64,000 nt of DNA. It comes from a virus. The translations under genes and the position numbers were made by a program. Below are positions 822 through 62,746 of this stretch, piece after piece. Within the stretch, counting starts at the first letter, position 1, and every line of letters starts with the position of its first letter. The notes beneath the pieces were generated by a model. That model worked only from the letters and a program-made list of their open reading frames with translations. It did not search any database and had not been told where the DNA came from. Location: positions 26,103 to 90,102 of IMG/VR virus record IMGVR_UViG_3300044684_000161. The stretch is one strand, 5' to 3'.

Positions 822-842
822 GCGTGACAGTACCTCATTGCC
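822..842 (+). promoter_or_regulatory. Late-promoter motif variant (GCGTGAC-AG-TACCTC), ATG 6 nt downstream
   Basis: Same spacing to ATG as the other copies; -10 box is degenerate. Confidence 0.45.
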
Positions 843-1562
843 ATGATCATCGAACACTTTGAGCGCAATACCTCTGGCCGTGATCTGGTCATTGGGGACA
901 TTCATGGCTGCTTCAGCCGTGTGCAAGCGCACCTTGATCGGATCGGTTTCGATCCTGGACGCGATCGGCTGTTCAGCGTTGGCGATCTTGTGGATCGCGG
1001 GCGAGAGTCAAACCTAGTGCTTGAATGGCTCGCGAAGCCATGGTTTCATGCCGTGTGCGGCAACCATGACGATATGGCGAAGCGCTGGCCCAGCGGGCGC
1101 ATGGATGCCGGAAACTATGCGGACAATGGCGGCGGCTGGAACATCATCAATCCGCCTGCGCTCCAGCGAGAGATCGCCGACGCCATGTCCACTTTGCCGA
1201 TCGCGATCGAGGTGGAGACAGCGAACGGCCTAATCGGCATTGTGCATGCGGATTGCCCGTTCCCGTCGTGGGCGTTATTTTCGCAGGCCCTGACTGATCC
1301 GACCATTTCGAATCGCACACGCCAAGCGATCATCGACGATGCTCAATGGTCACGTGAGCGTATCACCGCGATGGATGTCGAGGAAATTGAAGGCGTGCGT
1401 GCGGTCATCGTTGGGCATACGCCCGTCAAGCAGTTCACGAGTCTCGGCAACGTGTTCTATATCGACACCGGCGCTGTGTTCCCGGGGCGTGAATTCACAA
1501 TCTTGGATGCGGAGACATTGCGTCCAGTTGACCTCAAACTGACGCTTGATTGGGCGTCGTGA
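843..1562 (+). CDS. Ser/Thr protein phosphatase (lambda NinI/PphA-like)
   Basis: GDIHG, GDLVDRG, GNHD, GHT, IDTG motifs. Confidence 0.92.
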   Translation: MIIEHFERNTSGRDLVIGDIHGCFSRVQAHLDRIGFDPGRDRLFSVGDLVDRGRESNLVLEWLAKPWFHAVCGNHDDMAKRWPSGRMDAGNYADNGGGWNIINPPALQREIADAMSTLPIAIEVETANGLIGIVHADCPFPSWALFSQALTDPTISNRTRQAIIDDAQWSRERITAMDVEEIEGVRAVIVGHTPVKQFTSLGNVFYIDTGAVFPGREFTILDAETLRPVDLKLTLDWAS

Positions 1563-1571
1563 TCGCATACT
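1557..1571 (+). promoter_or_regulatory. Late-promoter motif (TCGTGAT-CG-CATACT)
   Basis: Motif match; precedes a structured non-coding region. Confidence 0.55.
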
Positions 1572-1574
1572 GAA

Positions 1575-1745
1575 TTCGCTGCGATGAGTGGGCGGTGAGC
1601 CCCCAGCGGCGCCGTGGGGCCAAAATAACGGCCGCAGCGGCTCATAGCGAAGACGCTCAGCGTCGGTCTCCACGTTAGGGAGTCGCCGTATCCGCACGAG
1701 ACGCGGCGTTCAATGTGCCGGGATGAGGAACCGCCCGGCACCTCT
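1575..1745 (+). ncRNA. Candidate structured non-coding RNA 2
   Basis: TTCGCT/AGCGAA and ATGAGT/GCTCAT closing stems around two inner hairpins, further hairpins to 1740; promoter motif directly upstream; no ORF. Confidence 0.4.
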
Positions 1746-1748
1746 GAT

Positions 1749-1769
1749 TCGTGACGCTATTCTCGCGTC
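1749..1769 (+). promoter_or_regulatory. Late promoter TCGTGAC-GC-TATTCT, leaderless
   Basis: ATG 6 nt after -10 box; no Shine-Dalgarno. Confidence 0.75.
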
Positions 1770-2933
1770 ATGGCACTTCTTGTCGACATCAGCAGCCTTA
1801 GCGAGACGCAGAGCGATCGGGCGCTACATACCATCTATAAAGCGATCCACGATCACGGCGACGACGACGCGATCTGGAAAGAGATGGACTCGCCGTTCCT
1901 GCGCCGTCTCGTCGAACTGTTCACGCAGCGCGGTCTGATGCGTCTCGACGGCTTCCGCAAGGAACTCGTCGAATGGATTAACGGCGAGAAGCATCGCGCC
2001 GGCGAGCGGCCTTCTCGTCCGGACGGAATGATGCAGCGCTGGAGCGCAGCCGAACTCAGGCTCGTGAAGCTCTATCTCGAGACGTTGCCGCCGGAGGCAT
2101 TCACACTCGATGACTGGATGATGGTCGTCGACTATCTGACGATGCGCTACTTGCCACCGGACGATCTACGCACGGAGGCCGAGTGGCTGTCGACGCGCGC
2201 GACGCTCATGGGTCGCGTGCAGGCCAACATGGAGAGCCTGAGCACGAAGCAGGCCGATACCGTACTCGCCGCGCTCCCGTCGACCGTCGCGGAAGCCGTT
2301 TCAGAATTCGTCATGTCGACCGCTCAGCGCGCGATGCTCGACTATGCCCGCGTGCGCGCGGCCGAGAACGTGCAGAAACTCGCCGACGACACACGGCACC
2401 GCATGCGCTACGTAATCGCGCAGCACCATGAGCAGCAGATGCTCAAGATTCCCGGCACGCCGGGACAGTCGCTACAGACGCGGCTGTTGGATGAGTTCGC
2501 CACGCTCAATCGGGACTGGCGGCGTATCGCTGTGACCGAGGCGGTGGAAGATCAAAACCAGGGCGTCATCGCGAACATGAAGCCTGGATCCAAGGTCAAA
2601 CGGCTTGAGCACTACGTCGGCGCGTGCGCTTTCTGCAAGAAGATCGACGGAATGGTGTTCAACGTCGTCGATCCGGGAGCGACCGACAAAGATGACTGGA
2701 CCGACGTTTGGGTCGGCAAGACGAACGTGGGGCGCTCGGCCGCTCCGCGTAAGCGTGTGGGAAAAGAACTGATCCCGCGTGAGGCGGCGGAGATGTGGGC
2801 CCCTGCCGCAGGTGTGCAGCACCCCCACTGCCGAGGTCGCTGGTTGCCAGTGCTCGAAGCCGAGCCTGGCGACGATCCGGATTTCGCGGAATGGCTGCGC
2901 AAGAAACTGGAGAAGAAAAGTGCCGCTACTTGA
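1770..2933 (+). CDS. Head morphogenesis protein (MuF/SPP1 gp7-like)
   Basis: [10 protein letters not shown], CxxC and HPHCRG motifs. Confidence 0.75.
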
Positions 2934-5185: not shown

Positions 5186-5200
5186 TCGTGACGCGACAAT
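5186..5200 (+). promoter_or_regulatory. Late promoter TCGTGAC-GC-GACAAT
   Basis: Motif match upstream of 5233. Confidence 0.75.
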
Positions 5201-10064: not shown

Positions 10065-10105
10065 TCGTGACGCGACACTCGCCCCATCAAGATAGATGGG
10101 GCGAG
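10065..10105 (+). promoter_or_regulatory. Late promoter TCGTGAC-GC-GACACT with overlapping 11-bp hairpin
   Basis: CTCGCCCCATC/GATGGGGCGAG stem ends 1 nt before ATG 10107. Confidence 0.75.
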
Positions 10106-10106
10106 C

Positions 10107-10689: not shown

Positions 10690-10710
10690 TCGTGACGCGA
10701 CACTCCATCC
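10690..10710 (+). promoter_or_regulatory. Late promoter TCGTGAC-GC-GACACT, leaderless
   Basis: ATG 6 nt after -10 box; no SD. Confidence 0.78.
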
Positions 10711-13745: not shown

Positions 13746-13820
13746 TCTTCTGATCGGACGATAGGATAGATGAACGAAACATGGCGGCACCTCCGGGTGC
13801 CGCCCTTCAGGAGAGCCATC

Positions 13821-14084
13821 ATGGCAAAAGTCATCTGCACTCTGAAAACCGCATCGGAGCTGATCAACGGCGTGAAGTTCGTCACGCATCGTGACGGCAT
13901 GATCTCAGAAGAGATTAGCGACGACGTGGCCGCAAATTTCGCCAGCATTCCTGGATACGTCCTGGCGGACGCCGAGCAGCCTTCTGGCAAGAAGCAGGTC
14001 GGCGCGAAGGATTCCGCCAAGGCGGACGGCGCAACCCCGCCTGCTGATCCGGCCGCTGCTGGCGCGGACGCCGGCAAGAAGTGA
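13821..14084 (+). CDS. Hypothetical virion protein
   Basis: RBS GGAGAG; follows capsid gene and a hairpin at 13783-13804. Confidence 0.65.
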   Translation: MAKVICTLKTASELINGVKFVTHRDGMISEEISDDVAANFASIPGYVLADAEQPSGKKQVGAKDSAKADGATPPADPAAAGADAGKK

Positions 14085-45580: not shown

Positions 45581-45607
45581 CGCTTCAATTGACGGCAAGG
45601 AGTCACT

Positions 45608-45832: not shown

Positions 45833-45906
45833 GCTATTAGTTCCCGTATAGATACGCCCAACAATTGGGCGCGGACCGAACGCTAGAGCCGCGCTTACGA
45901 GGATCC

Positions 45907-47544: not shown

Positions 47545-47575
47545 CGGCTCGGCCGCATTACCACGTGAGGAACAT

Positions 47576-48049
47576 ATGGCTTCGGTCAACAAAGTAATCC
47601 TGGTTGGCAATCTCGGCGCCGATCCGGAAAGTCGTTTCATGCAGTCTGGCGATCAGGTCACAAACATTCGCGTCGCGACTACGGAGACGTGGAAGGACAA
47701 GGGCTCTGGCGAGAAGAAAGAAGTTACCGAATGGCATTCGGTCGAGTTTTGGGGGCGCCTTGCGGAAGTGGCCGCCGAGTATTTGCGCAAAGGCTCCTCG
47801 GTGTATATCGAGGGGTCGCTTAAGACGCAGAAATGGCAGGACCAAGCCGGCAATGATCGCTACACGACGAAGATTCGCGCCGATGTAATGAAGATGCTCG
47901 GCGGTAAGCCTGATGGCGATGGTGGTGGCAGCGGCTCTCGCGGTCGTGACGCAAATAATGGTCGCCAGCAGCCGCGTCCCGCGCAAGGTCAATCCCAACG
48001 TCAGCAGTCGTCGAAACAACAGGACGATGACGGAGACGTGCCGTTCTAG
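47576..48049 (+). CDS. ssb: Single-stranded DNA-binding protein
   Basis: [14 protein letters not shown]; C-terminal DVPF. Confidence 0.96.
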
Positions 48050-48094
48050 GAACTGACGCTCGGGGCGCGCCCATCCACTTACGCGCCCCGAGAC

Positions 48095-48601
48095 ATGACC
48101 GATACCAAGCCCACCAACCCCAAAGACGCGATCGGCAGCGGCAAACTACCGCTCCACCTATGGCCCAATACCGCGACAGCCCTTGGCTGTCTCGGTCTCC
48201 TCGACGGGATGCTCAAGTACGGCCGCACCAATTGGCGCGTCGCTGGAGTTCGGGCATCCATCTACATCGATGCGGCGAAGCGGCACCTCGACAAATGGTT
48301 CGAGGGGCAAGACTGCGACGAGGATAGCGGACTGCCCCATTTCGCGCACGCGCTCGCGTGCATCGCAATCCTCGTCGACGCTCAGGCCGCCGGCAAACTG
48401 AACGATGACCGCATGGTGGCTGGTGGCTATCTCGAAATGCTCAAGGCGATAACGCCACACGTCGATCGGCTGAAAGTGCTTCACGCGGGCAAGGATCCCA
48501 AGCATTACACGATCGCCGACTCGCATGCCGACGGCATGGTCGAGCACGGCGCCCTCGAAGCCGACGCGCGACTGATCGCCGATTCGAACGCGAGCGCCTG
48601 A
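48095..48601 (+). CDS. dATP/dGTP diphosphohydrolase-domain protein (DUF5664-like)
   Basis: NPKD...KYG..NWR...D.DSGLPH.AHA. Confidence 0.8.
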   Translation: MTDTKPTNPKDAIGSGKLPLHLWPNTATALGCLGLLDGMLKYGRTNWRVAGVRASIYIDAAKRHLDKWFEGQDCDEDSGLPHFAHALACIAILVDAQAAGKLNDDRMVAGGYLEMLKAITPHVDRLKVLHAGKDPKHYTIADSHADGMVEHGALEADARLIADSNASA

Positions 48602-48602
48602 C

Positions 48603-49031
48603 ATGCGCGAGTCGAACGTTTTGCGAGCGACTTGGCTCGCTGTCGCCGCGCTCGGCTGCACGCTATTCCGCGTCAATACCGGGAAGGGATACGTAGGCAA
48701 GGGCGTGCGCCAACCTGACGGCAACGTGCTCGTCATCGGCGGCCGCCCGGTCGCACTCGGATTCGGCATGCCTAATGGCGATCCTTTAGTCGGCACCTCC
48801 GACCTGATCGGCTGGACGACTGTCGAGATTACGCCGGAAATGGTCGGCCACCACGTTGCCGTGTTCACAGCGATCGAGACGAAAGAATCCGGCGGCGGCA
48901 ACAAGCGCGAGGAGCAAATCAACTTCGTCGACCGTGTGCGCGCCGCCGGCGGCATCGCCGGCTTTGCCAATTCTCCGGCCGTCGCGCAAGGGCTCGTTCG
49001 TGACTTTTGCGTGAAAGCAACGCTGCCATAA
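48603..49031 (+). CDS. VRR-NUC nuclease
   Basis: GTSDLIG, IETK, EQINF...GGIAG. Confidence 0.85.
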   Translation: MRESNVLRATWLAVAALGCTLFRVNTGKGYVGKGVRQPDGNVLVIGGRPVALGFGMPNGDPLVGTSDLIGWTTVEITPEMVGHHVAVFTAIETKESGGGNKREEQINFVDRVRAAGGIAGFANSPAVAQGLVRDFCVKATLP

Positions 49032-49296
49032 GTCATCGGACCATTGCTCAAAAACGCGGATACAATCTGCAACATTCCGGGCGCATTTTCCGGCGTTTTG
49101 CGTCATGGCGCGAACAGACGGAATTTAATGCTTGTAGTCAACGGATCGGTTCACTCGTTCTCACGGTAAATTTGCGCACCGCAGCATTTGCGCAAGGTAA
49201 GTTTTACTGCGCGACCTAGGTTAGCTACCGAAGCGCTCCCTGCTGGCGCGTGGTCGCGCACCCCAATGCATCAGCGGGCTTCTTTGCAGGAGAAGT

Positions 49297-52164: not shown

Positions 52165-52610
52165 TGGCTGCCCAAATCACGGTGCCGAAGGGTTTCAAGA
52201 GTGACTTCGATCTCGTTTGCGACCGCCTCAGCGCCACGCCAGAAGAGATCGAGGACATTCGCCAGAAGGTGCGTGCCGACTTTGAGGATTGGGGACGCGT
52301 CGTGCAGCGTATGGCGGCTATCTGGCGCTACGTTGACCGCGTGTGGGCGTCGTTCCTCGGTGGCGTCGGCGTGTTGCCATCACGCGAGCAGTGTGAGACT
52401 TGCATCAGGGCTATGGCGTGGATGCCGGCCGATCCGATCCTCTTCGATCGGCTTGAACATATCGAGCTCGTTGAACTGTGCGGGCAGATCGACGGCGCGA
52501 TCTTAGGGCCGATCCCATACGAAGAAGCCCCACATTTCAGTACGATGCGAGATATGATGGAATATCGCGCGCTCGAGGCGCGGATGCGCGCGGAGCTTAC
52601 CGCGACTTGA
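52164..52610 (+). CDS. Hypothetical protein
   Basis: Coupled to primase stop; RBS GGAGG. Confidence 0.6.
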   Translation: MAAQITVPKGFKSDFDLVCDRLSATPEEIEDIRQKVRADFEDWGRVVQRMAAIWRYVDRVWASFLGGVGVLPSREQCETCIRAMAWMPADPILFDRLEHIELVELCGQIDGAILGPIPYEEAPHFSTMRDMMEYRALEARMRAELTAT

Positions 52611-52785
52611 GACAAGCCTCGCGCGTCTCGTGGATGACTTGCAGGACGAGGTCGATCACTTCGCTGTATGGCACCCAGCGACAGGATTCGGCGACGACGC
52701 GGTCCTCGTCGTTCGACACATTGATCATGTCTACGCCTTCGCACTCCGGCTCAAAGATGCGTACTGAGAAAGGCGGAAGGCTCAT
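52597..52785 (-). CDS. Small hypothetical protein
   Basis: Preceded by promoter motif variant and hairpin. Confidence 0.45.
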   Translation of the reverse strand: MSLPPFSVRIFEPECEGVDMINVSNDEDRVVAESCRWVPYSEVIDLVLQVIHETREACLKSR

Positions 52786-52787
52786 GG

Positions 52788-52831
52788 CAATCTGACCGGA
52801 GGAGGACTCTAGTCAGATTGTCGTGTCGCGA
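52788..52831 (-). promoter_or_regulatory. Late-promoter variant TCGCGAC-AC-GACAAT with 9-bp hairpin
   Basis: CAATCTGAC/GTCAGATTG stem ends 2 nt before ATG. Confidence 0.6.
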
Positions 52832-52838
52832 CGGCGTG

Positions 52839-54050
52839 TCAGGCGGCCCACGATACCCAGTTCGCCGCTGGGGCCGCGCGCGGCTCGTCTACGTTCACCG
52901 GCATGCTGAACGTAATCCCATGCACCGGGTGGGTAATCCAGAGCGCTTGACGCGGCGGCTCGAAGCCGAAGTTGTTCGAGAAGGCGTACTCGTCGTATCC
53001 CTTCAGCGAGCCGTTGACGATGAGACGTTGCAATTGGATCAATTGATGCCAGTGACCGAGCAGCATCGTGTCATAGCTGGCCCCGATCTGCGTCTGACGA
53101 CTACGCTTTTTGTGGTCGCCTCGGATGATAGGCCCAAGCGCGCCGATCATGCCATCGCCGCCGCGAAATTGATCACCATGCGTGAGCAGATAGCGATGTT
53201 CGAAAACCTTGTAGATCGCATCCGGGCCATTCGGAATGAGGAATGAGATGCGTTTGTCTTGCTCGAACCGCTTGGCGAGGAAGCAATAGAGCAACCAATC
53301 GAACGAAGTGTAATTGCGCCCCTTCGCCCGGATTTTGTGTGTGTTGCGGCCGTGGTTGCCGGATACACACGGCACGAAGACTTTCCCAAACCGATCTGCC
53401 AGGGTTTCGATGCACCAACACAACACGCCAAACAGATCAAGCACCGTTGGCATGATCTCGACCTCATTGGTCGCCATCAACTCTTCGTGGATATCGCCCG
53501 ACACGAGGTCTCCACCGAGGGCAAATACGATACCCGGATAGGTCGGATTGACCATATGGTTGTTGAGGAGATTGATCGCTGTCTCGATCAATCGGCGCGC
53601 CCGGCGATGCGCTATTTCAAGATTGTATTCATTCACACCGTTGATTTGCAGTGGATCGACGACCTCCGCCCAATGCCAGTCAGATGCGAATAGGGTGGGG
53701 ACGCCTGGAGCATCTTTGGCGAACCGCTTCGGCACAAGCCATTTTGGCGGCTCTACAGATTCGGCTACCAGCTTTAGAATTTTTCGCTTTACGTATTCTT
53801 CGTCTAGCGCTTCCTGTCGGGCAGAGGAAATTGCGGACCTTAATGTGCGAACTTCACTCTCGAGTTCGGCAAGTCGACCAGGGTCATTTGATTGTGCCGG
53901 GCTTTCGACGAGCGCCGACTGCATCCCCATCTTCTTCATCCGGCGCAGGCACCAGGAACTGTCTATGCCGAGATCGCGGGCCGTTGCTCGATGGTCGTAG
54001 TTGTTCTTGCGCGTGGCCGCTTCGAATTGTTCGTCTGAAATTGTAGGCAT
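52839..54050 (-). CDS. Calcineurin-like metallophosphoesterase with N-terminal HTH/coiled coil
   Basis: SDWH, GGD, GNHGR, THGD, GHWH. Confidence 0.85.
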   Translation of the reverse strand: MPTISDEQFEAATRKNNYDHRATARDLGIDSSWCLRRMKKMGMQSALVESPAQSNDPGRLAELESEVRTLRSAISSARQEALDEEYVKRKILKLVAESVEPPKWLVPKRFAKDAPGVPTLFASDWHWAEVVDPLQINGVNEYNLEIAHRRARRLIETAINLLNNHMVNPTYPGIVFALGGDLVSGDIHEELMATNEVEIMPTVLDLFGVLCWCIETLADRFGKVFVPCVSGNHGRNTHKIRAKGRNYTSFDWLLYCFLAKRFEQDKRISFLIPNGPDAIYKVFEHRYLLTHGDQFRGGDGMIGALGPIIRGDHKKRSRQTQIGASYDTMLLGHWHQLIQLQRLIVNGSLKGYDEYAFSNNFGFEPPRQALWITHPVHGITFSMPVNVDEPRAAPAANWVSWAA

Positions 54051-54058
54051 AGCTCGGC

Positions 54059-54117
54059 CCCGAAAGTGTGGTCTGCTGCACATTTTCGGGTCACGACTTT
54101 GGGCTATACGGTCACGA
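54059..54117 (-). promoter_or_regulatory. Tandem late-promoter motifs with a 12-bp hairpin
   Basis: TCGTGAC-CG-TATAGC and TCGTGAC-CC-GAAAAT; CCCGAAAATGTG/CACACTTTCGGG. Confidence 0.7.
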
Positions 54118-54289
54118 TCTTCTGCGGGCGGTGACTGCGGGCCGGCGGGAGGATCGAGAAGTTTTCCGGCAGTATCCATACGCCGCCGACCATTTTGGCG
54201 GCCGGAATGCGGCCCTGCTGGATGAGCTTTTGAATGCGGCGGGGCGTCACACCAAATCGCGCGGCCGCTTCGGCGGTGCTGATCGTCAT
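54104..54289 (-). CDS. Excisionase-family HTH protein
   Basis: STAEAAARFGVTPRRIQKLI..GRIPA...GGVW. Confidence 0.7.
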   Translation of the reverse strand: MTISTAEAAARFGVTPRRIQKLIQQGRIPAAKMVGGVWILPENFSILPPARSHRPQKIVTV

Positions 54290-54548
54290 CAAAATCCCCC
54301 GAAAGAGTGAATCGTGAGCAGCGCCGTGAAGGCTACGATGGAGGCGGCGACGCATGCGCCGAGTACCTGCTTAGATGCTGCGCTCATGACGGTTGCTCCA
54401 TTCGGAAATTGTTTCCCAGCAGTTACGCTCGTCCATCGGGCGGCTCTGGTTGATGCGCACGATACACAGGCAAATGACAGTCGCGACAATCATGAACCCT
54501 AGATAGATCGCCGCGATTTCCCCAAATACGTCCATAGTTCATCTCCTA

Positions 54549-54980
54549 TTATTGGACCGCTTCTGCCAGGACTACGTTGAGCGCGTCGCGAATCTCACGG
54601 CGCGTGCTGATGTCCTGAATCTCATTTGAAAGCGTCAGCGCCTCGCCGATCGCGCGGAACTCGTCGCCGGATACGCCCCAGCGTCCAGACGCTGCTGCGC
54701 GTGCGCGCACCTCGACTATCGCCTCAAGTGCGCGCGACATGACGGCCTGCGCTTCGGCTGGCTGCTGCCGCGCAAGCACAGCACCGAGGTTCAGTGCACA
54801 CGCCAGGGTATGCCATCCTGGTTCGTCGCCAACACCGCGCCGGAACGCATCGAGCACCGTGTGCGGCGGCAGTTGCAGATTCGTCATTGCCTCCTTTGGC
54901 ACTGCGAACGTCATCGGCAGGTAGCCCGGGAGCAGCTTGCGCGGGCGGTATGGCTTGCGGGGCCTGGTGCTCTTAGGCAT
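54549..54980 (-). CDS. Hypothetical protein
   Basis: MPKSTRPRK start with RBS GGAGG. Confidence 0.6.
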   Translation of the reverse strand: MPKSTRPRKPYRPRKLLPGYLPMTFAVPKEAMTNLQLPPHTVLDAFRRGVGDEPGWHTLACALNLGAVLARQQPAEAQAVMSRALEAIVEVRARAAASGRWGVSGDEFRAIGEALTLSNEIQDISTRREIRDALNVVLAEAVQ

Positions 54981-55530
54981 GCTCCGCCTCCCCAGCGATC
55001 TCGGCGCGCAGGTGCTCGACGAATGGCATCCAAACGTGATCGTAGAAGCCGACCAGAGCGGGCCTCTCGCGCTGCTCGACGAAGTGCCATGGTTCGTCTC
55101 CAAGCGGTTCGCAGCCGAACAGCGCATTGATGAATAGGTCTTTGCCGCAGTCCTCGCATGGAATCTGATGCCATGCCTCGCGCGCTTCTTCCGCGTCGAT
55201 GGAGCGGTCGCGTCGCTCACGAATGATTTCGCGCCTCACGCGCGCGACCGATGCGTCGAAGTCGAATTCGTAGAGCGACAGGCCGGCCAGCTTGTCGAGC
55301 AGGTAGCCGCGATCGATTGACACGAGGAACCATTTAAGTGTCGATCCCATGTTGCCCCATGAGTAGGCGTAATTTCCGTAGTCGGAATTGATCAGGATTT
55401 CACCGCCGTGCATGATTCCGCTCGTGCTCGGGCGCTCCCATCCGCGTAGCGCGATAGTCGCCCAGCATCCGTGCTCGCCGCGCAAGCTGTAGCGCTCCAT
55501 CGGCGGTTCTTTGGTGATTGTCGTGGTCAT
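54973..55530 (-). CDS. Hypothetical protein
   Basis: SDYGNY.Y.W...YLLDKL pattern; coupled to next gene. Confidence 0.6.
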   Translation of the reverse strand: MTTTITKEPPMERYSLRGEHGCWATIALRGWERPSTSGIMHGGEILINSDYGNYAYSWGNMGSTLKWFLVSIDRGYLLDKLAGLSLYEFDFDASVARVRREIIRERRDRSIDAEEAREAWHQIPCEDCGKDLFINALFGCEPLGDEPWHFVEQRERPALVGFYDHVWMPFVEHLRAEIAGEAEHA

Positions 55531-55576
55531 GGTGTTCTGGCCCGGCGCGGCCGGGCGTTGGTTTGCGATTTGCGAT

Positions 55577-55759
55577 TCAGGCTGCGATTGACGGGGGCGC
55601 CGACACGATCCCGATCGCACGCTCAGCGAAGTTGCAAACGTCGAGCACGTCATCGACCCATGCCGGGTACGGCGGCTCGCCACCGGCATCGATCTCCGCG
55701 CGGAATTGCTCAAGCGCTTCTTTCGCCAGTGCACGCAGGCGTTCGATTTGGTTTTTCAT
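55577..55759 (-). CDS. Small hypothetical protein
   Basis: Part of leftward small-gene array. Confidence 0.5.
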   Translation of the reverse strand: MKNQIERLRALAKEALEQFRAEIDAGGEPPYPAWVDDVLDVCNFAERAIGIVSAPPSIAA

Positions 55760-55767
55760 GGTCGTAT

Positions 55768-55998
55768 TTATTGGTTGTATATCGAAGGCTCCCAGCCGTC
55801 GCGGAGCACAATGTGCTGGGAGGCAAACGGGGCTTCATGAGGCTCGTTTCGATCAATCCGCCTTGTCGAGCCAGCCGGGATTCTTTGTGGCGCGTCAAGA
55901 CATCCGGAGCCGTCCTCACCACAGATATCCACGCATTTGAACTGCGCGCTCATGCGACGATCGTAATAGACGGCATCGTAGTAGGTTCGATCGAACAT
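55768..55998 (-). CDS. Small hypothetical protein
   Basis: Part of leftward small-gene array. Confidence 0.45.
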   Translation of the reverse strand: MFDRTYYDAVYYDRRMSAQFKCVDICGEDGSGCLDAPQRIPAGSTRRIDRNEPHEAPFASQHIVLRDGWEPSIYNQ

Positions 55999-56464
55999 GG
56001 CTGTCTCAGCGGGTAGCATCCAAGTAACCCAGCGCGTAGCCGGAGCTCTGCTCGCGCGGCGCGCGGCCTCTCATCGCGTCGTTCCAGCCGCGCGCCCACG
56101 CGCGGATGCGGTATTGTTCGATGTTCTGCATGTTCATGGTCTCAGTGGGCCCGGCGGACCGGGCGGGTTGTTAAATGGATTTGCGGCCGCGAAGTTGATC
56201 GACGTACCACTTAGCGTCAGCCAGCGTGCTTTCGCGCCCGATGAACTCGCCGGCCTTCGTGATAGCCCAGCGACGCCCATTCTTGGCAATGGAACGGCAA
56301 TGCGTCGCGCATCAGGTCCAGCAGGTCGCGTGCTGTAGTGCTCATGGTGGCATCCCCGTTTGAAGTCGTGCGCCGCGACGATGACAAGCGACGCGATGCA
56401 CACGCCGATTGCTACGCCCAGCGCAAGGCCGATTTGAAATGTGGTCATGGTATTGTAATTAGTT

Positions 56465-56683
56465 TTAGAGTCGATTGATTGCTGCGCCTATCAATTCCTT
56501 CGCAAGTGCCATTGCCTCGCGCGGCGTCAGGTGAAGTGAAATTTTTCGACCATCATCGTAGTCGGTTGGGAAAAATTGCACCTTGATCCCAAGCGCACTG
56601 CCAGGCCCGGAATATACGGCGGCCGTCGATTGGCACTCGATAAGCTTTGCCGATTTCAGATTGAACTTTTCCTCGATTCTCAT
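56465..56683 (-). CDS. Small hypothetical protein
   Basis: MRIEEKF...LTPREAMALA; follows 22-bp repeat. Confidence 0.5.
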   Translation of the reverse strand: MRIEEKFNLKSAKLIECQSTAAVYSGPGSALGIKVQFFPTDYDDGRKISLHLTPREAMALAKELIGAAINRL

Positions 56684-56699
56684 GGTATCAATGCCCGCC

Positions 56700-56924
56700 G
56701 AAGCGGGAGTGGTTAGGCGGATTGCTTGCAGTGATAGCAACGGTACTGCGCGCCTTTCTGCGGCATCGAAACGTGCGGTGCCCATGTGCTCATGTGACCG
56801 CAAGCTCCAAAGACGTACACGCCTTTCTCGTCGCGCTCGACATGGGACACAGTTACGAGTGGGCCGCGTGGGTCAGGGTTGCTCTGCATCATCGTTCTCC
56901 TAGAAGCGGGAGTGGTTAGGCGGA
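56700..56924. repeat. 22-bp perfect direct repeat GAAGCGGGAGTGGTTAGGCGGA (56700-56721, 56903-56924)
   Basis: Flanks one small gene; each copy contains the upstream gene's stop codon. Confidence 0.85.
56713..56892 (-). CDS. Small Zn-binding protein (CGH...CYHC)
   Basis: RBS AGGAG; between the repeats. Confidence 0.55.
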   Translation of the reverse strand: MMQSNPDPRGPLVTVSHVERDEKGVYVFGACGHMSTWAPHVSMPQKGAQYRCYHCKQSA

Positions 56925-57122
56925 AGCGAGCGCAATGCGTTCTGCCGTGCGATACGCGGCATAAAGCTCTGGTTCGTTCGCGTACCAGTACCCCGACGCT
57001 CGGCCAGCACAGTAGCCAGCACCTTTCCCCAGCGCCCAATCAAAATGGTCCGGTCCGAGACGGTCGCGCGCATCGGCTTCGCTCATTTCTTCGCGCCAGT
57101 AGTCTTTCGTTGCCATCGTCAT
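56916..57122 (-). CDS. Small hypothetical protein
   Basis: RBS AAGGGG; leftward array. Confidence 0.55.
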   Translation of the reverse strand: MTMATKDYWREEMSEADARDRLGPDHFDWALGKGAGYCAGRASGYWYANEPELYAAYRTAERIALASA

Positions 57123-57141
57123 CCCCTTCGTGATTGCGTTG

Positions 57142-57318
57142 TTAGTCTGCCTTGACCCAGGCGTCGAATTGCTCATCCAAGCCGGCCTCATGAATCAGCG
57201 ACAGCGGATGCACAAACGGGGCGAAGATGCCTTCCGCCTTTAGGCCATGAGCATCGGCGAATTCCTTAGCAACCGCGAAGATTTCAGCGTCGGTGCTCAT
57301 GTCGTTCAGCTTGCTCAT
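57142..57318 (-). CDS. Small hypothetical protein (58 aa, not in ORF track)
   Basis: MSKLNDMSTD...; RBS AAGGGG. Confidence 0.5.
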   Translation of the reverse strand: MSKLNDMSTDAEIFAVAKEFADAHGLKAEGIFAPFVHPLSLIHEAGLDEQFDAWVKAD

Positions 57319-57568
57319 TTTGCTGCCCCTTTGTGTTCGCGTTGTCGATGTACGTAATGTACGCCAAAACGAACACTTAGGAGCACTTGGGGCGATTGAT
57401 ATTTATTAATCGAATTTGAGTAATCGATAGCTTTCGCTATGCGTTCAGCAGCCGGACATCTGGCTCGCTACTCCGGCAGCGATCAACGCAAGCGCGAGCC
57501 TGCGCAACTCAAGCGATTGAGGATGCTCGGCGCGTAGCTCGAGCAGGTCGCGTGCGGTCTGGCTCATC

Positions 57569-57766
57569 TCAGTCCTCGTCGGCGTCGATCGCGAGCAGCA
57601 GGTCCACGTCGTCAGCCGTAATGTGTAGCGACTTGGCGGCGTCGATCTGGCCGCGCATGGCGCTCAATCCATCCAGCGCTGCCGCATGCGTGCTGAACGT
57701 TCCGAGCCAGCGGTCGTCAGCGTATAGACGGCCATCGATGACCGTCATGTCGCGGTTCCAATCCAT
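57569..57766 (-). CDS. Small hypothetical protein
   Basis: RBS GGGAG. Confidence 0.55.
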   Translation of the reverse strand: MDWNRDMTVIDGRLYADDRWLGTFSTHAAALDGLSAMRGQIDAAKSLHITADDVDLLLAIDADED

Positions 57767-57778
57767 GATGGCGTCTCC

Positions 57779-58108
57779 CTATGCCGCGCCGAACAACGCG
57801 CGTCCGAGCGCGACGAATGCGTCGGACTGCTCCTCACAAGGGCGAGCGCGACGAATGCGCACAGAGGTCGCCCAGCGCGAGAACTCGGCCTGATCGAACG
57901 GTACCGCGCCGAGCCGATAGATCGGCGATAGACGCGGTCCACCCTCTCGCCGGTACTTACCCGTGGGTTCGGCCATGCGAAGGCTGACGAGCTTGCGCAT
58001 CGCACTCTCAACCGCCTTCTCGTTCAAGTTGAGCTCGCGCTGCAACTCGGGCCGCGTCGCAGTTTCGTGCGCGGACAAATACGCGCAGATTTCGGCGGCG
58101 GCGCTCAT
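57779..58108 (-). CDS. Winged-HTH-like protein
   Basis: ATRPELQRELNL...AMRKL...IYRL. Confidence 0.55.
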   Translation of the reverse strand: MSAAAEICAYLSAHETATRPELQRELNLNEKAVESAMRKLVSLRMAEPTGKYRREGGPRLSPIYRLGAVPFDQAEFSRWATSVRIRRARPCEEQSDAFVALGRALFGAA

Positions 58109-58326
58109 CCCTCTGTCACCACAGCATGAGCCTCGGACTCACGCCGACGCTTGGCGTCCTCAAAGCATCGCTCGCACGAGTGCAGTTTGAAGAGGGCGCC
58201 GTAGCCATGGAGCCGACCCTCGCGCTTTTTCACGCCTTCTTTGAGCACTTTGCACTCAAGACATAGCTCCACCACGCGCACGGTCATCGGCCGGCTATTC
58301 CACGCTTGCCGTTCCTTCGGTGTCAT
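58105..58326 (-). CDS. Small Zn-finger protein
   Basis: CLEC...CERC; RBS GGAG. Confidence 0.55.
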   Translation of the reverse strand: MTPKERQAWNSRPMTVRVVELCLECKVLKEGVKKREGRLHGYGALFKLHSCERCFEDAKRRRESEAHAVVTEG

Positions 58327-58702
58327 TGTGCGGTCTCCTACCTAGCACCAGAGCACGTCGTCATAGGCGACGTAGTGCGTTTCCAGGAGGTGCCCACTGT
58401 GGCTGAACACGTCGACGCGGAAAAATGGCCGCAGCCCCATCGCGAGCGCGCGGTTCCTCGGGTCGAATATCGTCAGCGTGCGATGCATGGTGCCCTCCTG
58501 CTCGAAAGTGTGGTGTCACGAAGCGGGAGGCGATTGGTCGAACAGAGCCGTATTTCCCCGTCTGTTCGCTGTCCCACGCTTCGATCAAAAATGATCAACC
58601 ACGCTCAGAGTCTAGGGCATGTACAAAATATGATGATTGTATTTGATGATCGGATTTGAGGAATGGATAGACGAAACGGCCGGAAGCTCCCGGCCGCGCC
58701 TA

Positions 58703-59365
58703 TCAGGCAGTGCGGGTGATGCGGTGTGGGGTGGTAGGGCGCCACGGCTCAATCTCGGTGACTGAGAATTTCCGCCCCAAACGACGGCCGTGGTAAAAGC
58801 AGCGCTGCTGCAAATTGACCCGCATTGGCTCGACCTCGAACGGCACAACGAATGATTCACCGATCTCCAATTGATCGAACGGATACTTCGTTTTATATGG
58901 CTGTGGCGTCCATTCTATGTCGCGTGTCTGAGCAGGAATGTTCGGCGATGACACGGCTTCAGGATCAAGTCGAATCACGGTCATTCCGGTGATTGAACTG
59001 CGGCAACTGAGTTTCCAGCCGTGCCGCCTCGCGAATCCCTTAGCCGCTTGTCGCACTCGGTCACGTTCCCTCGGCGAAGCGGGAACTGTCATCGACTCTC
59101 CGACGCGCAGCGAACGAAAGTTGTACTTTGACTCACGCATATCCTCGCCATCACCAACATCAGATCGAGGGCGTGGCGTGCGCGTGATGATGAGGTACGT
59201 CCCATCATAGACAGAATCGAACTTGGTTTGCCGAGCGCGCCCCATCTTGCGTAGGAGCGTCATCGCCGATGGGACGACGCCACCGCCCATCTTCACCTTA
59301 TCGGTTTGACCAACCTCAAGTTTGCCGGCGATTCGTCGGATCAATACGGTTAATTCAGTGTTCAT
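58703..59365 (-). CDS. Basic protein with two KY.F..L..GES repeats (putative DNA-binding)
   Basis: KYNFRSLRVGES and KYPFDQLEIGES; next to putative origin. Confidence 0.6.
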   Translation of the reverse strand: MNTELTVLIRRIAGKLEVGQTDKVKMGGGVVPSAMTLLRKMGRARQTKFDSVYDGTYLIITRTPRPRSDVGDGEDMRESKYNFRSLRVGESMTVPASPRERDRVRQAAKGFARRHGWKLSCRSSITGMTVIRLDPEAVSSPNIPAQTRDIEWTPQPYKTKYPFDQLEIGESFVVPFEVEPMRVNLQQRCFYHGRRLGRKFSVTEIEPWRPTTPHRITRTA

Positions 59366-59393
59366 AGGTGTCCTTTGATGGATTGGCATGCTC

Positions 59394-59685
59394 GTAACCG
59401 CCATACGGTTACTCGCCGAGCACACGGTTTCTAATATTTTCCTTAAAAATCAAAGACGTAACCAGGAAACCGGCGTTGGCTCGGAAGGAGATTAAGAACC
59501 ACGAACACTATACCACACATATTATATTCAATTGTTGGGTATGTATGTGTAAGCAGTATTGTGTGTCTCTCCTTATATATCTATGGTTACTTGGTTACAT
59601 ATACATACAGAATCCTTATGCAGCAAGGGTTTGAGGCGGTAACCAAAGGGTAACCATGGCTCGAAATTTCGGTTACCTCGGTTAC
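59394..59685. repeat. Putative replication origin: nine GTAACC/GGTTAC boxes around an AT-rich tract
   Basis: Boxes at 59394, 59407, 59458, 59585, 59593, 59639, 59650, 59671, 59680; mostly non-coding. Confidence 0.6.
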
Positions 59686-59834
59686 GCAAGTCATCGTGCT
59701 TCACGAGCGCTCACGACCCCTCACTTATGTTGCGTCAAAGCCACGGTAATTCTTACCTATCCAGCATTGACCGGTTGTAAGGCTTAGGCCGTCTCGTGAT
59801 ACCATTAGTCAAATACGGTTAACGAGGTCGCAAC

Positions 59835-60359
59835 GTGGTCGATTACTTCGAAATGCCGGAGATTCCAGGCCGCAAGTATTTCCGGTGCGAACGACTGCGC
59901 GCAACGCTTGCTATCCCGGCGTGCGCGGGAATGTGGAAGCAGGCCAATCACGAGAACAACGAGGAGCGGCTGCGGTGCAAGTGCTGCCCTCTCGGCGCTG
60001 TGCACGCCGGTGAGACTGCGGCGTCGATGTCGCCGCTCAAAGGCACGTTGATCTGCGGGCGCTGCCACAATCGCGCGTCCCGGCTGATCGGCAAGCACCT
60101 GTGCGTGTCGTGTCAGAACAGGCAGTACGAGTGGCTGAAGGGCAAGAACGCGAAGGGCAGCAAGCCGATCAAGTTGAAGTCGCTCGAGCCGCGCACACTG
60201 CATTACCTGCACGGCCGTGATCCGCGATCGATCTACCTGCCCCTGTCGGCCGACCTCGACGAGCTCATCGTCGCCGCACTCCGCGACTCGATCAACCGCG
60301 TGCGCTTCGCGTATCACGGCGCCATGCGCGGCACGCCTCAGCAACTCAGGCTCTTTTGA
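59835..60359 (+). CDS. Multi-Cys zinc-finger protein
   Basis: CxxC pairs (CKCC, CGRC, CVSC); RBS GAGG. Confidence 0.7.
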   Translation: MVDYFEMPEIPGRKYFRCERLRATLAIPACAGMWKQANHENNEERLRCKCCPLGAVHAGETAASMSPLKGTLICGRCHNRASRLIGKHLCVSCQNRQYEWLKGKNAKGSKPIKLKSLEPRTLHYLHGRDPRSIYLPLSADLDELIVAALRDSINRVRFAYHGAMRGTPQQLRLF

Positions 60360-60365
60360 AAATCA

Positions 60366-60643
60366 TGAGTGACACCGATCAACAGCCACAGTGGACACTC
60401 ACCGAGCATTGCTGCAGGTGCTGCTTCGGGCGCGTGCTGTTTCGCAAGACATTCGATGGGCGCAAGCTGTACCGCTGCGCGAACTGTGGCGTCGAGCGGG
60501 AAGGGAAGGATGAGACATCGATTTGCAGTTGCGGCATCAAACTCAAGACGCGGATCGACGCCGGCATTCGCTGCGTGCGCAATGACCAGCCCTCGCCTGA
60601 GTGCCCGGTCGAGATCGTGGCCGAACAAGTCAAACCGGTTTGA
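60366..60643 (+). CDS. Cys-rich small protein
   Basis: HCCRCCFGR, CANCG, CSCG. Confidence 0.65.
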
Positions 60644-60673
60644 GCATGCGCACAAGCGCGAACAGGAAGGAGT

Positions 60674-60799
60674 ATGAGCAAGGGATTGGTACAGGTATCG
60701 GTCGTCGTGCCGTGCATTGCTGGCATGGTGTATCTCGCGTCGCATGGAAATTCGGGTTGGGGATGGTTAGTCGCGATCGCGATCATTGCGATACTCTAA
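60674..60799 (+). CDS. Small membrane protein (41 aa)
   Basis: RBS AAGGAG; two hydrophobic segments. Confidence 0.5.
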   Translation: MSKGLVQVSVVVPCIAGMVYLASHGNSGWGWLVAIAIIAIL

Positions 60800-60904
60800 T
60801 CAGATTGTAAATCTGGTGATTTGGTCGCGTTGAGCCTTATTCGGCGCGTGTTTCTTGAGTTTTAGGCCGAGCGTCGGGCGCAAATCGGACGCGGCGAATC
60901 AAAA

Positions 60905-61180
60905 ATGAACAATATTTCAATCTGGAAATTCGACTTAGCCGTCACCGACCGTCAATTGGTGACGATGCCTATCGGCGCGAAGATACTATCGATTCAGTTT
61001 CAAGGCGGCAGCCTGAAGCTGTGGGCTCTCGTCGACCCTGAGGCGGAAACCATAGGCCGTGAGATTGTTATGTACGGCACGGGATGGCCGATGCGGGAAC
61101 ATCCAGGTCAACACCTCGGCACCGTCCAACAAGCAGACGGATACTTCGTCTGGCACTTCTTCGAGCCGGAGAACGAATGA
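60905..61180 (+). CDS. Phage hypothetical protein
   Basis: IWKF.L...GA.IL...LWA.VD...GTG...VWH.F pattern. Confidence 0.7.
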   Translation: MNNISIWKFDLAVTDRQLVTMPIGAKILSIQFQGGSLKLWALVDPEAETIGREIVMYGTGWPMREHPGQHLGTVQQADGYFVWHFFEPENE

Positions 61181-61623
61181 TGACGATCTCCAAACTCGAA
61201 GCCTTCTGCAGAATGGCAGAGGCGAACCAAGCTGGCGTAGAAGCCGACATTCTCACCCCGGATCACGAGTACACCCTCGTGGGCGCCGACATGGCCGCGC
61301 TGGCGGCCGAGATACGCGAGCTACAGCGCCGGGCGGAGATAGTTTCGGCGCCGGGCGTCGATATCGATCGCGCCCATGATGTCGGCCGCCCGTCTTTCAC
61401 TGGCACATTCACAATGCCGTCAGCGTCAAGCAACGCCATCCCCGATGCTGACGGCTGGATCGAGTGGAAGGGCGGGAAATGTCCGGTAGCTGATAGCGCC
61501 GTCGTCGATGTGAGGTTGGGTGATGGTCGCCATTTTTTGAAATGGAAAGCCGACTATTTGAGATGGACCCATTTTCACTGCATGACTGACATCGTCGCCT
61601 ACCGTATTCCTCGTAGCGCCTGA
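61177..61623 (+). CDS. Hypothetical protein with WIEWxGG.CPV...DIVAYR domain
   Basis: ATGA overlap with previous stop; common phage motif. Confidence 0.65.
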   Translation: MMTISKLEAFCRMAEANQAGVEADILTPDHEYTLVGADMAALAAEIRELQRRAEIVSAPGVDIDRAHDVGRPSFTGTFTMPSASSNAIPDADGWIEWKGGKCPVADSAVVDVRLGDGRHFLKWKADYLRWTHFHCMTDIVAYRIPRSA

Positions 61624-61687
61624 CTAATCTGGCCGTGTGAATTCGCGCGGCTATGATGTAGCAATTTTTACTACACACGGAGCAAAA

Positions 61688-61978
61688 ATGGACACGAAGA
61701 AACTGGAATCTCTGAAGCTGGCTCTCAAACGCGGTGCGCCGATTGACCCCGAACTCGTCGGCGAACTGATTCAGAACTACGAAGGCGTCGTGCGGGCTGA
61801 GGAGTATTGGGGCGATCGCGCGCCGAAGTTGGTCGACGAGATCAACGCGCTGCGCCCACTTGAGACGTCGCTGCGCGCGATGGTCACGCATTCAAGGCTC
61901 GTGACTGACGCGGCTGAAGCCGCGACGATCGCGCTGGTCGAACTCGATGCGGTGCGGTCGAAGCAGGCGGCATCATGA
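61688..61978 (+). CDS. Hypothetical protein
   Basis: RBS GGAG. Confidence 0.6.
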   Translation: MDTKKLESLKLALKRGAPIDPELVGELIQNYEGVVRAEEYWGDRAPKLVDEINALRPLETSLRAMVTHSRLVTDAAEAATIALVELDAVRSKQAAS

Positions 61979-62163
61979 AGCGGTTCCTTTGGGCGGCGTT
62001 CAATTTCGCGACGAGCCCAGTCAACGGGCTCATTTTTTACTTTCTGTTTATCGGGGTCGCACTCGTTGAGACGAGCCCACCTATTGATGTTTGGCTGTCC
62101 ATGTTTCTGCTCATGGGTGGACCCGCGTGGATGGGATACAGGATCGGGAGGGGCGACCGATGA
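61975..62163 (+). CDS. Small membrane protein
   Basis: Two TM segments; ATGA overlaps. Confidence 0.55.
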   Translation: MKRFLWAAFNFATSPVNGLIFYFLFIGVALVETSPPIDVWLSMFLLMGGPAWMGYRIGRGDR

Positions 62164-62714
62164 TCAACTGGCTCAAGCGGCGCATCGCTTGGCGGGAACT
62201 CGACGAGCTCGAACGGTGGAAGGTGGCCGAGAGTTCGCTGCGGCAATGGCTCGCTGAGTTCCCCGACGTGCGGGATACCCTTGATCATTTGCGCGTGGTC
62301 GCTGCCGGTAGCGTCGGCTTGAACGAGTCGAAGCTGCGTGAGCGGCTGCGCGTGCGTCGGGACTTCATGCGCAAGTTCGATGAGACGATTGCCTCGCTGA
62401 CGCCGCGCACGATGACGGCGACCGAACTCGACTGGCTGGCGTCAATACCGCCCGTCGATCGCGACGAGGCATACCGCCGTTGTGGCGTGAAGTCGATGCG
62501 CCAAGTCAAAATTGAAGATGAAGGGTGGACGGACGGAGCCGTAGCGGACGCGGAGCGAAAAGTGGCGACAGATTGGGACGTTGCCAACGTCAACGATGCG
62601 ATGCTGGCTCACATCCATAGCACGTCCGAGTGGCTAGCCTGCAACGTGCATTCCGAACCTGCACCCGGCCGTATCGACTACCGCTTCCTTGGCGTCACCG
62701 GCGAAGAATCGTGA
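62160..62714 (+). CDS. Hypothetical protein
   Basis: ATGA overlap; RBS GGAGG. Confidence 0.55.
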   Translation: MINWLKRRIAWRELDELERWKVAESSLRQWLAEFPDVRDTLDHLRVVAAGSVGLNESKLRERLRVRRDFMRKFDETIASLTPRTMTATELDWLASIPPVDRDEAYRRCGVKSMRQVKIEDEGWTDGAVADAERKVATDWDVANVNDAMLAHIHSTSEWLACNVHSEPAPGRIDYRFLGVTGEES

Positions 62715-62746
62715 CGCCATCATGTCCGCATGGAGGTGCGGATATG
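62709..62746 (+). promoter_or_regulatory. Late promoter TCGTGAC-GC-CATCAT with hairpin enclosing RBS and ATG
   Basis: CATGTCCGCA-TGGAGG-TGCGGATATG. Confidence 0.75.

Follow-up and report, generated by a model that had tools for sequence, protein, structure and literature searches.

A TCGTGAC signal directly upstream of a -10-like hexamer as a probable phage-specific promoter class, often placed for leaderless starts, in a family of contractile-tailed phages

T4 middle promoters combine a MotA box centred near -30 with a sigma70 -10 hexamer, and sigma is appropriated by MotA and AsiA. The T4 late promoter used with gp55 has TATAAATA at -10 as its sole element, and the promoters of the P2 Ogr and P4 Delta systems carry a dyad, TGT-N12-ACA near -55, for the Ogr_Delta zinc-finger activator. 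Extended -10 (TGn) promoters are independent of a -35 element and offer extra contacts just upstream of the -10. Here, we describe a recurrent signal, TCGTGAC-N2-NANNNT, in a stretch of 64,000 nucleotides (the window) corresponding to bases 26103-90102 of the virus record IMGVR_UViG_3300044684_000161, which has 90,102 base pairs (bp) and direct terminal repeats and is rated 100% complete. The signal is probably a phage-specific promoter class that lacks a -35 element and is read via a phage factor, with a cysteine-rich protein of 174 residues as the best candidate. Activator-dependent phage promoters lacking a -35 element are a known type, while the family-wide coupling to leaderless starts would be unusual and the candidate reader comes from an undescribed protein family.

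The nearest architecture is that of the late promoters of phage P1, which have a -10 without a -35, a short conserved element just upstream and many copies per genome. Two reports describe 11 late promoters, all carrying the Lpa site in the form of a 9-bp inverted repeat (PMC10695390), and the action of Lpa (gp10) together with the host protein SspA (PMC1891329). In the P1 RefSeq record, the promoter LPpac consists of a 9-bp "-22 region", 4 nucleotides and the -10, and lpa itself is transcribed from a sigma70 promoter controlled by a repressor operator (Plpa/Olpa). Unlike the P1 inverted repeat with its 4-nucleotide gap, the element in the window is an asymmetric 8-mer, GTCGTGAC, at -22 to -15 with a gap of 2 nucleotides; it lies 3-4 bp nearer to the -10 and has another sequence. 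No Lpa homologue was detected, either by hhalign against the alignment of the 174-residue family (0.1% probability) or by tblastn of Lpa against the genome (best E value of 0.58). To our knowledge, the leaderless geometry of about half of the units described below has no counterpart in P1.

Leaderless mRNAs are common in Thermus, and a second point of comparison comes from a Thermus phage. In a preprint on phage Lalka27a, a structural relative (bioRxiv 10.64898/2026.04.20.719267), sixteen putative late promoters have a -10 TAGGGT, a conserved C at -25 and no -35, and 5' ends were mapped 6 nucleotides past the -10 for half of the late promoters. The preprint also reports mostly leaderless transcripts, dense promoters and a divergent late pair at the protease gene, and its authors propose a phage factor that alters the specificity of RNA polymerase. 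As in the window, the protease gene in the Lalka27a record begins shortly after the hexamer (7 nucleotides). Unlike in the window, specificity resides in the -10 itself, and the Lalka27a record contains neither the TCGTGAC heptamer nor a homologue of the 174-residue protein (E ≤ 1).

T4 middle promoters share with the signal a retained host sigma70 -10 and a phage-specific box in place of the -35, whose activator is known in T4 and proposed here, as well as two small early proteins, a larger one and one of ~90 residues. The differences are that the element in the window is centred near -18.5 and that the candidate proteins are cysteine-rich. A preliminary description of the window had not recognised the consensus among T4 gp55 or P2 Ogr promoters, and we agree: the hexamers, of the form C/G-A-N-A-A-T, come with an obligatory heptamer before them, nothing is conserved further upstream than -23, and the 174-residue protein and its 95-residue neighbour have no Pfam match at E ≤ 0.1. 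Extended -10 promoters differ in that their TG is absent here at -15/-14, and in that the block in the window extends to -22 and is phage-specific. No published description of a TCGTGAC signal was found in a search that excluded subscription journals and supplementary files. A search by name found no transcription study for the cultured relatives, and the paper on Mecenats66 does not contain the word "promoter".

The signal consists of (G)TCGTGAC at -22 to -15, two nucleotides and a sigma70-type -10 with A-11 and T-7, where the last T of the hexamer is numbered -7. In 108 sites pooled from nine genomes, the consensus is G(78%)-T(81%)-CGTGAC, G/A-C, C/G-A-N-A(46%)-A(58%)-T, with A enriched at -9/-8. 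The hexamer thus has the A at position 2 and the T at position 6 of a canonical sigma70 -10, and no -35 hexamer accompanies it; as noted in the preliminary description, no -35 is conserved, the information being at most 0.08 bit at each position from -60 to -23. The spacer is strictly 2 nucleotides: in the nine genomes, NANNNT follows 89 of 168 heptamers at this distance and 1-12 at spacings of 0, 1 and 3-8. The heptamer is asymmetric, with a central GT in 89 sites and AC in 6, and it bears single-base variants nearly only at -21 (G) and -15 (T). NANNNT-N6-ATG opens a reading frame of at least 100 codons in 264 cases; in these, the 8-mer at -22 to -15 is GTCGTGAC in 24, GTCGTGAT in 7 and GGCGTGAC in 4, and every other 8-mer occurs at most twice. 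The TG of extended -10 promoters is not found at -15/-14. Position -15 is C in all 108 sites, which is fixed by the search pattern, and a test of single variants gave C 49, T 9, A 1 and G 1; position -14 is G in 58% and A in 25%. In AT-rich relatives, the hexamers drift toward TATAAT.

The motif is strongly enriched relative to 100 dinucleotide-preserving shuffles of the window. The heptamer alone occurs 26 times (13.0 ± 3.8 in the shuffles), TCGTGAC-N2-NANNNT 12 times (0.50 ± 0.67), and CGTGAC-N2-NANNNT-N6-ATG 5 times (0.04). Open reading frames (ORFs) were mapped with a crude caller based on the guanine-plus-cytosine (GC) content of third codon positions and cover 90% of the genome. The remaining ~10% holds 14 of the 18 CGTGAC-N2-NANNNT sites of the whole genome, and all 14 have a gene start on the same strand 4-73 nucleotides downstream. 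Consistent with the earlier statement that the motif is mainly intergenic, the hexamer is present at 11 of 12 intergenic TCGTGAC heptamers in the genome and at 3 of 21 within ORFs. In a blind enrichment of 7-mers upstream of ORFs, GTCGTGA ranked first and TCGTGAC sixth. The sites in the window are as follows, with scores from a position weight matrix (PWM) given for some of them.

822-836, plus strand: weak variant GCGTGAC-ag-TACCTC, below the threshold of the PWM list; hexamer ending in C; ATG 843 of a NinI-like phosphatase 6 nucleotides past the hexamer
1557-1571, plus strand: variant TCGTGAT-cg-CATACT at the 3' end of the phosphatase gene; PWM score 17.7
1749-1763, plus strand: promoter-like site with leaderless geometry; ATG 1770 of a 387-residue head-morphogenesis-like protein 6 nucleotides past the hexamer
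5186-5200, plus strand: promoter-like site with a leader, upstream of a 1609-residue virion/cargo protein (ATG 5233)
10065-10079, plus strand: promoter-like site upstream of an HNH endonuclease gene (10107); a strong hairpin begins directly past the hexamer
10690-10704, plus strand: promoter-like site with leaderless geometry, syntenic in relatives; ATG 10711 of the prohead protease 6 nucleotides past the hexamer
13889-13903, plus strand: exact motif within the ORF 13770-14084; perhaps an internal promoter of the gene that follows, or a chance occurrence
17146-17160, minus strand: promoter-like site GCGTGAC-gc-TATGAT, divergent to the site at 17174; ATG 17139 of a 269-residue gene product 6 nucleotides past the hexamer
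17174-17188, plus strand: promoter-like site; ATG 17196 of a 278-residue protein 7 nucleotides past the hexamer; divergent pair kept in relatives
20466-20480, plus strand: doubtful variant TCGGGAC-ac-TAGCAT between tail genes, with the GTG of an ORF directly after it; PWM score 16.1
26622-26636, plus strand: promoter-like site with the top PWM score; ATG 26643 of a 387-residue virion protein 6 nucleotides past the hexamer
28139-28153, plus strand: one-mismatch TCGGGAC-gg-GACAAT within the ORF 27803-28429; possible internal promoter; PWM score 21.5
31001-31015, plus strand: promoter-like site with a leader containing GGAG, upstream of a 154-residue gene product (GTG 31040) and tail-fibre genes
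35454-35468, plus strand: promoter-like site TCGTGAC-ta-TAGGAT upstream of the gene at 35541
52817-52831, minus strand: promoter-like site TCGCGAC-ac-GACAAT upstream of a 62-residue gene product starting at 52785; inverted repeat across the predicted start; PWM score 21.8
54082-54096, minus strand: promoter-like site upstream of the exonuclease gene, with a probable ATG near 54050
58507-58521, minus strand: promoter-like site, then a leader with AGGAGG and ATG 58488 of a leftward operon of small genes
62709-62723, plus strand: promoter-like site at a metallopeptidase-like gene; an out-of-frame ATG occupies the predicted +1, and the in-frame ATG 62743 has GGAGG upstream

All ten exact sites of the preliminary description were recovered with their hexamers (1749, 5186, 10065, 10690, 17174, 26622, 31001, 35454, 54096 on the minus strand and 62709). 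So were its five one-mismatch heptamers (822 GCGTGAC, 1557 TCGTGAT, 17160 on the minus strand GCGTGAC, 20466 TCGGGAC and 52831 on the minus strand TCGCGAC), of which the one at 822 is a weaker variant, its hexamer lacking the final T. Three further sites came to light: the exact site at 58521 on the minus strand, the exact intragenic site at 13889 and the one-mismatch intragenic site at 28139. Beyond the window, sites stand before the portal gene, both methyltransferase genes, a cassette of small genes and the likely small terminase gene. The term "late" promoter, used previously, is too narrow, as the signal also precedes two DNA methyltransferase genes, the exonuclease gene, the metallopeptidase-like gene and small non-structural genes. 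At 31001-31015 / 31011 (minus strand) and 15582 / 15592 (minus strand), the heptamer and its flank are partly palindromic and give PWM matches on the opposite strand that look like by-products.

The distance from the hexamer to the next ATG is sharply peaked. Among 112 sites in ten genomes, the ATG lies 6 nucleotides past the hexamer in 38 and 7 nucleotides past it in 14 (52 of 112 together), and each other spacing from 0 to 29 accounts for 0-7 sites. The ATGs at 843, 1770, 10711, 17139 (minus strand), 17196 and 26643 do lie 6-7 nucleotides past the hexamer, as had been described. Sigma70-type enzymes usually start transcription where the A of these ATGs falls. ORFs of at least 40 codons are opened by 58 of 64 such ATGs, and the N-termini of the portal, the protease, the 387- and 278-residue virion proteins and others are conserved from that methionine in phages whose hosts are alpha-, beta- and gamma-proteobacteria. 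With the 6-nucleotide spacing, the TGA of the heptamer is an in-frame stop five codons upstream of the ATG, so that no longer ORF is possible. In Bordetella phage PHB04, seven RefSeq starts coincide with such ATGs: portal 39176, protease 20517, gp005 4718, gp015 14037, gp030 34449, gp049 49318 and gp064 57999. We infer that the TCGTGAC sites act as promoters and that many of the genes behind them have leaderless starts. A separate consequence of the frame is that a ribosome arriving by read-through in the frame of the ATG 15 nucleotides downstream of this TGA (e.g., 26622-26645) would stop just before the start codon.

Fifty-three of the 108 sites have no ATG 5-7 nucleotides past the hexamer, and in most of these the first long ORF begins 15-140 nucleotides downstream; many of these leadered sites have their own Shine-Dalgarno sequence of the GGAG type. 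A strong hairpin often begins in or directly past the hexamer of the leadered sites, with the predicted start within its 5' arm (10080-10106, 52785-52822 on the minus strand, and in relatives), and some of the hairpins overlapping the start are followed by a run of T. The mean z score of folding is -1.41 at 39 leadered sites and -0.52 at 49 leaderless sites. A read-through RNA would fold such a hairpin or terminator, and an RNA initiated at the promoter would not. One TCGTGAC site in each of the two enterobacterial relatives, ECML-606-1 34489 (minus strand) and fHe-Yen8-01 3728 (plus strand), has at its predicted +1 an ATG whose frame closes after a single further codon (ATG TTT TGA), and a second ATG lies ~20 nucleotides further on.

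The phage has a GC content of 60%. Scans with PHROG profiles identified it as contractile-tailed and assigned genes for the terminase, the portal, the prohead protease, the major head protein, the sheath, the baseplate and fibres; they also detected two DNA methyltransferases, an integrase and a block of replication and recombination genes. Capsid proteins with 44-50% identity to its own occur in Bordetella phage PHB04, in Pseudomonas phages Touem01, Dolphis and Jeremy, in Aeromonas phage ST4 and in phages of Yersinia, Escherichia, Enterobacter and Morganella with genomes of 86-95 kb; those of the Thermus Lalka phages are 37% identical. Nearer uncultured relatives are IMG/VR contigs and contigs of metagenome-assembled genomes, mostly labelled Alphaproteobacteria, one of which is embedded within a 2.95-Mb contig.

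The signal is conserved across this group. In four complete IMG/VR relatives, the strand counts are 11/0, 8/0, 9/0 and 13/0, all on the strand of the structural genes, and the reversed-pattern control gave 0. Sites before the protease gene and the divergent pair before the neck and tail genes are syntenic in relatives. The cultured phages PHB04, Dolphis, Touem01, fHe-Yen8-01, ECML-606-1 and ST4 carry the signal, and the hosts of these carriers include Bordetella, Pseudomonas, Yersinia and E. coli. The heptamer is unchanged in phages of alpha-, beta- and gamma-proteobacteria with 41-70% GC. One relative, designated G008 (capsid protein 54% identical), has a single exact copy and four CGTGAC-N2-NANNNT matches, none of them with an ATG 5-7 nucleotides downstream, and the top words upstream of its genes are Shine-Dalgarno sequences.

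The pattern GTCGTGAC-N3-A-N3-T was also searched in three host genomes of 3.8-5.0 Mb. Prophage DNA holds 9 of 11 matches in G002 and 8 of 10 in G003, with 2 elsewhere in each; in G001, 10 of 21 matches lie in the prophage, 3 in a second element and 8 elsewhere. Reversed controls gave 1, 4 and 1 matches. The TCGTGAC signal is not a host promoter type. Its concentration in prophages, together with hosts from three classes, indicates a phage-encoded reader, and a phage factor most likely reads the signal. The second element of G001 (G001:C1:2390000-2402000) is small and has five TCGTGAC sites, homologues of the 174- and 95-residue proteins (43% identical), a primase and a protein with a lysozyme domain. 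It lacks a capsid module and a RecE homologue, and it may be a satellite or a prophage remnant on the same promoter system.

To identify the candidate reader, all predicted proteins were scored for presence or absence in eight motif-bearing genomes and in G008. The only non-structural genes present in all eight and absent from G008 are those of the 174-residue protein and a RecE-like exonuclease. The region of the candidate comprises the following features.

59440-59834, unstranded: AT-richer control region with GGTTAC/GGTAACC words and a TG-n-TACCAT extended -10-like box before the 174-residue gene product
59835-60359, plus strand: 174-residue candidate reader, encoded by the gene that opens the rightward early operon; eight cysteines and one histidine invariant; no TCGTGAC site upstream
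60356-60643, plus strand: 95-residue cysteine-rich, zinc-ribbon-like protein adjoining the 174-residue gene; possible partner, found with it in 7 of 8 motif-bearing genomes

The 174-residue protein is 41-59% identical across hosts of three classes, with the heptamer invariant, and it occurs in exactly ten phage records, which are the capsid relatives. A profile search found 892 cluster representatives of the family. Among 79 IMG/VR loci with a homologue (35-66% identity, 41-70% GC), 69 contain the motif, with 150 copies as compared with 22 in the control. Longer fused homologues show a sub-threshold helix-turn-helix in 3 of 10 cases. The second element of G001 has the pair and the motif without a capsid module, so the pair is separable from the structural genes. 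On this sequence evidence, the 174-residue protein, perhaps with the 95-residue protein, is the best candidate for the reader. The 174-residue protein has no match in Pfam or PHROGs, and a Pfam search at E ≤ 0.1 was also empty for the 95-residue protein. The ESM Atlas gave only unnamed clusters for the former and generic zinc-ribbon leads for the latter. A PDB profile search with the 174-residue protein gave just spurious matches to cytochrome c (E values of 0.4-0.7).

About ten GGTTAC/GGTAACC words stand at 59440-59830 between the divergent genes of a 240-residue protein and the 174-residue protein, and they are probably the operator array of a lysogeny switch. The region 59440-59834 holds a probable repressor-controlled early promoter, and this layout parallels Plpa/Olpa of P1. 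Relatives have other repeated operator-like words at the same place, and host-type -10 boxes before the 174-residue gene. A simple sigma70 consensus scan of 44000-63900 gave 3 matches where 6.5 were expected and is uninformative on early promoters.

A search for polymerase factors in six frames of the genome gave no match to PF04542 (Sigma70_r2) or to PF00623 (RNA polymerase large subunit), the control for the latter matching in 14 of 14 genomes. PF00940 (T7-type RNA polymerase) gave no match, and its control matched nowhere, which makes this search uninformative. PF08281 (Sigma70_r4_2) yielded one sub-threshold helix-turn-helix (14.7 bits, E value of 0.0024) at 54209-54280 on the minus strand, within a small ORF that lies shortly upstream of the promoter sites of the exonuclease gene; this ORF is outside the genes common to five or more relatives. 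PHROG scans of 70 ORFs, which did not cover every small ORF, detected no sigma, RNA polymerase, MotA, AsiA or other transcription-factor family. A T7-lysozyme-type amidase (PHROG annotation "endolysin; inhibits RNA polymerase") is encoded at 48095-48601 in the replication operon, far from the lysis genes, and is conserved in PHB04.

The preliminary description had pictured a compact promoter with a phage factor next to the -10 and frequent leaderless starts, and all computable evidence supports this picture: the spacing, the ATG peak, the conserved N-termini, the PHB04 starts and the clustering in prophages. Several points weigh on the other side. A few high-scoring sites lie in ORFs or antisense to them (13889, 28139, and 15592 and 33379 on the minus strand), and the opposite-strand matches at 31011 and 15592 (minus strand) look like by-products of the partial palindromy. 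The 174-residue protein has no recognised DNA-binding or RNA polymerase-binding domain, and its link to the motif is one of co-occurrence, not proof. As the heptamer stays invariant down to 35% protein identity, it offers no protein-DNA covariation to use, and the sole motif-less relative that serves as a negative, G008, lacks many other genes as well. A very divergent sigma of the T4 gp55 kind would be missed by the Pfam models used. Neither for this phage nor for any relative found is the 5' end of a transcript known, and no RNA sequencing run containing the sequence was found.

One alternative is that a divergent phage sigma-like subunit, possibly the 174-residue protein itself, replaces the host sigma and reads heptamer and hexamer together. 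The 16-bp signal is contiguous, as would suit a single reader, 174 residues fall within the size range of small sigmas, and divergent phage sigmas such as T4 gp55 are known to escape profile searches. We nevertheless regard this as unlikely, given that no Sigma70_r2 or r4 match exceeded the cut-off in six frames, that eight invariant cysteines are unlike the sigmas we know of, and that the ESM Atlas contains no named relative. It is likewise unlikely that the host holoenzyme alone reads the element, as an unusual upstream extension of the -10 contacted by sigma region 3 or the beta' zipper. The sigma70 signature of the hexamer and the existence of -35-independent promoters of the extended -10 type would suit a reading by the host, and the phage factor is itself a proposal. 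Against it stand the absence of the canonical TG at -15/-14, the identity of the heptamer in phages of three proteobacterial classes at 41-70% GC, and a signal that is at most sparse outside prophage DNA in the three host genomes (2 matches each in G002 and G003; 8 of 21 in G001, where the control gave 1).

The heptamer might instead be a repressor operator on ordinary weak promoters, like the stoperators of mycobacteriophage L5, an analogy prompted by a short, asymmetric, orientation-locked intergenic site in a temperate phage with an integrase. Once the heptamer is taken away, however, only a weak -10 is left, with no -35 and no TG, and hence no promoter to repress; a fixed spacing of 2 nucleotides to the -10 and a fixed distance to the ATG are also unexpected of stoperators. 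Moreover, the operator-like repeats beside the putative repressor gene (240 residues) are a different word, GGTTAC, and vary among relatives, whereas the heptamer is invariant. We consider this explanation very improbable. A signal acting at the RNA level in translation initiation or processing, in place of a Shine-Dalgarno sequence and with no role in transcription, would account for the fixed ATG distance and for the lack of a Shine-Dalgarno sequence at about half of the sites. It is extremely improbable in view of the 53 of 108 sites without an ATG 5-7 nucleotides past the hexamer, many with a GGAG-type sequence of their own, of conserved positions that fit sigma70 -10 rules and not 16S rRNA pairing, and of sites that follow terminators or stand back to back as divergent pairs, where no gene lies upstream on the same strand.

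Three other readings were rejected. CGTGAC resembles the -35 sequence CTTGAC, but the hexamer follows it at 2 nucleotides, and a -10 placed 17 nucleotides downstream would fall in conserved coding sequence. A methyltransferase target would show neither intergenic placement, nor a set orientation, nor a fixed position with respect to the ATG. Termination and reinitiation at the in-frame TGA does not apply to the many sites that follow terminators or form divergent pairs without an upstream gene.

Under the preferred reading of the signal as a promoter dependent on a phage factor, its parts would be the asymmetric 8-bp (G)TCGTGAC, exactly 2 nucleotides, and a -10 of the form C/G-A-N-A-A-T with A-11 and T-7 essential, with neither a -35 nor a TG extension. 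Host core RNA polymerase with the primary sigma would melt the -10, and a phage protein bound to the heptamer would stand in for -35 recognition, as does P1 Lpa at the "-22 region" or T4 MotA at the MotA box. In the predicted cascade, the early promoter would supply the factor, which would then switch on ~20 TCGTGAC promoters of virion, packaging, lysis, methylase and nuclease genes. The A of the ATG falls at the predicted +1 in about half of these promoters, and the first gene there would be translated from a leaderless mRNA. The others would produce a leader, usually with a Shine-Dalgarno sequence, and the 5' arm of a hairpin or terminator often overlaps their predicted start site. A bolder version, which we offer tentatively as a possibility, is that the 174- and 95-residue proteins form a new class of transcription factor that seizes the sigma70 holoenzyme via GTCGTGAC at -22 to -15, directly beside the -10 and with a -35 contact made unnecessary, works on alpha-, beta- and gamma-proteobacterial RNA polymerases, and is coupled to leaderless translation of first genes even in E. 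coli. In that case, these first genes would be expressed only from their own promoters and not from read-through transcripts.

For this family of ~90-kb contractile-tailed phages, which is large and has hardly been studied, the signal provides a ready map of transcription units; cultured members come from E. coli, Yersinia, Pseudomonas, Bordetella, Aeromonas and Morganella. Confirmation of the factor would extend the short list of ways in which phages redirect host RNA polymerase without -35 contact by a protein family and a geometry that are both new. Leaderless starts that are widespread among virion genes would be out of the ordinary for phages of Proteobacteria, those of E. coli among them, and would give studies of leaderless initiation a tractable system. 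As an orthogonal part for expression, a promoter that is short, portable and independent of the host, with a single cognate factor, would be useful too.

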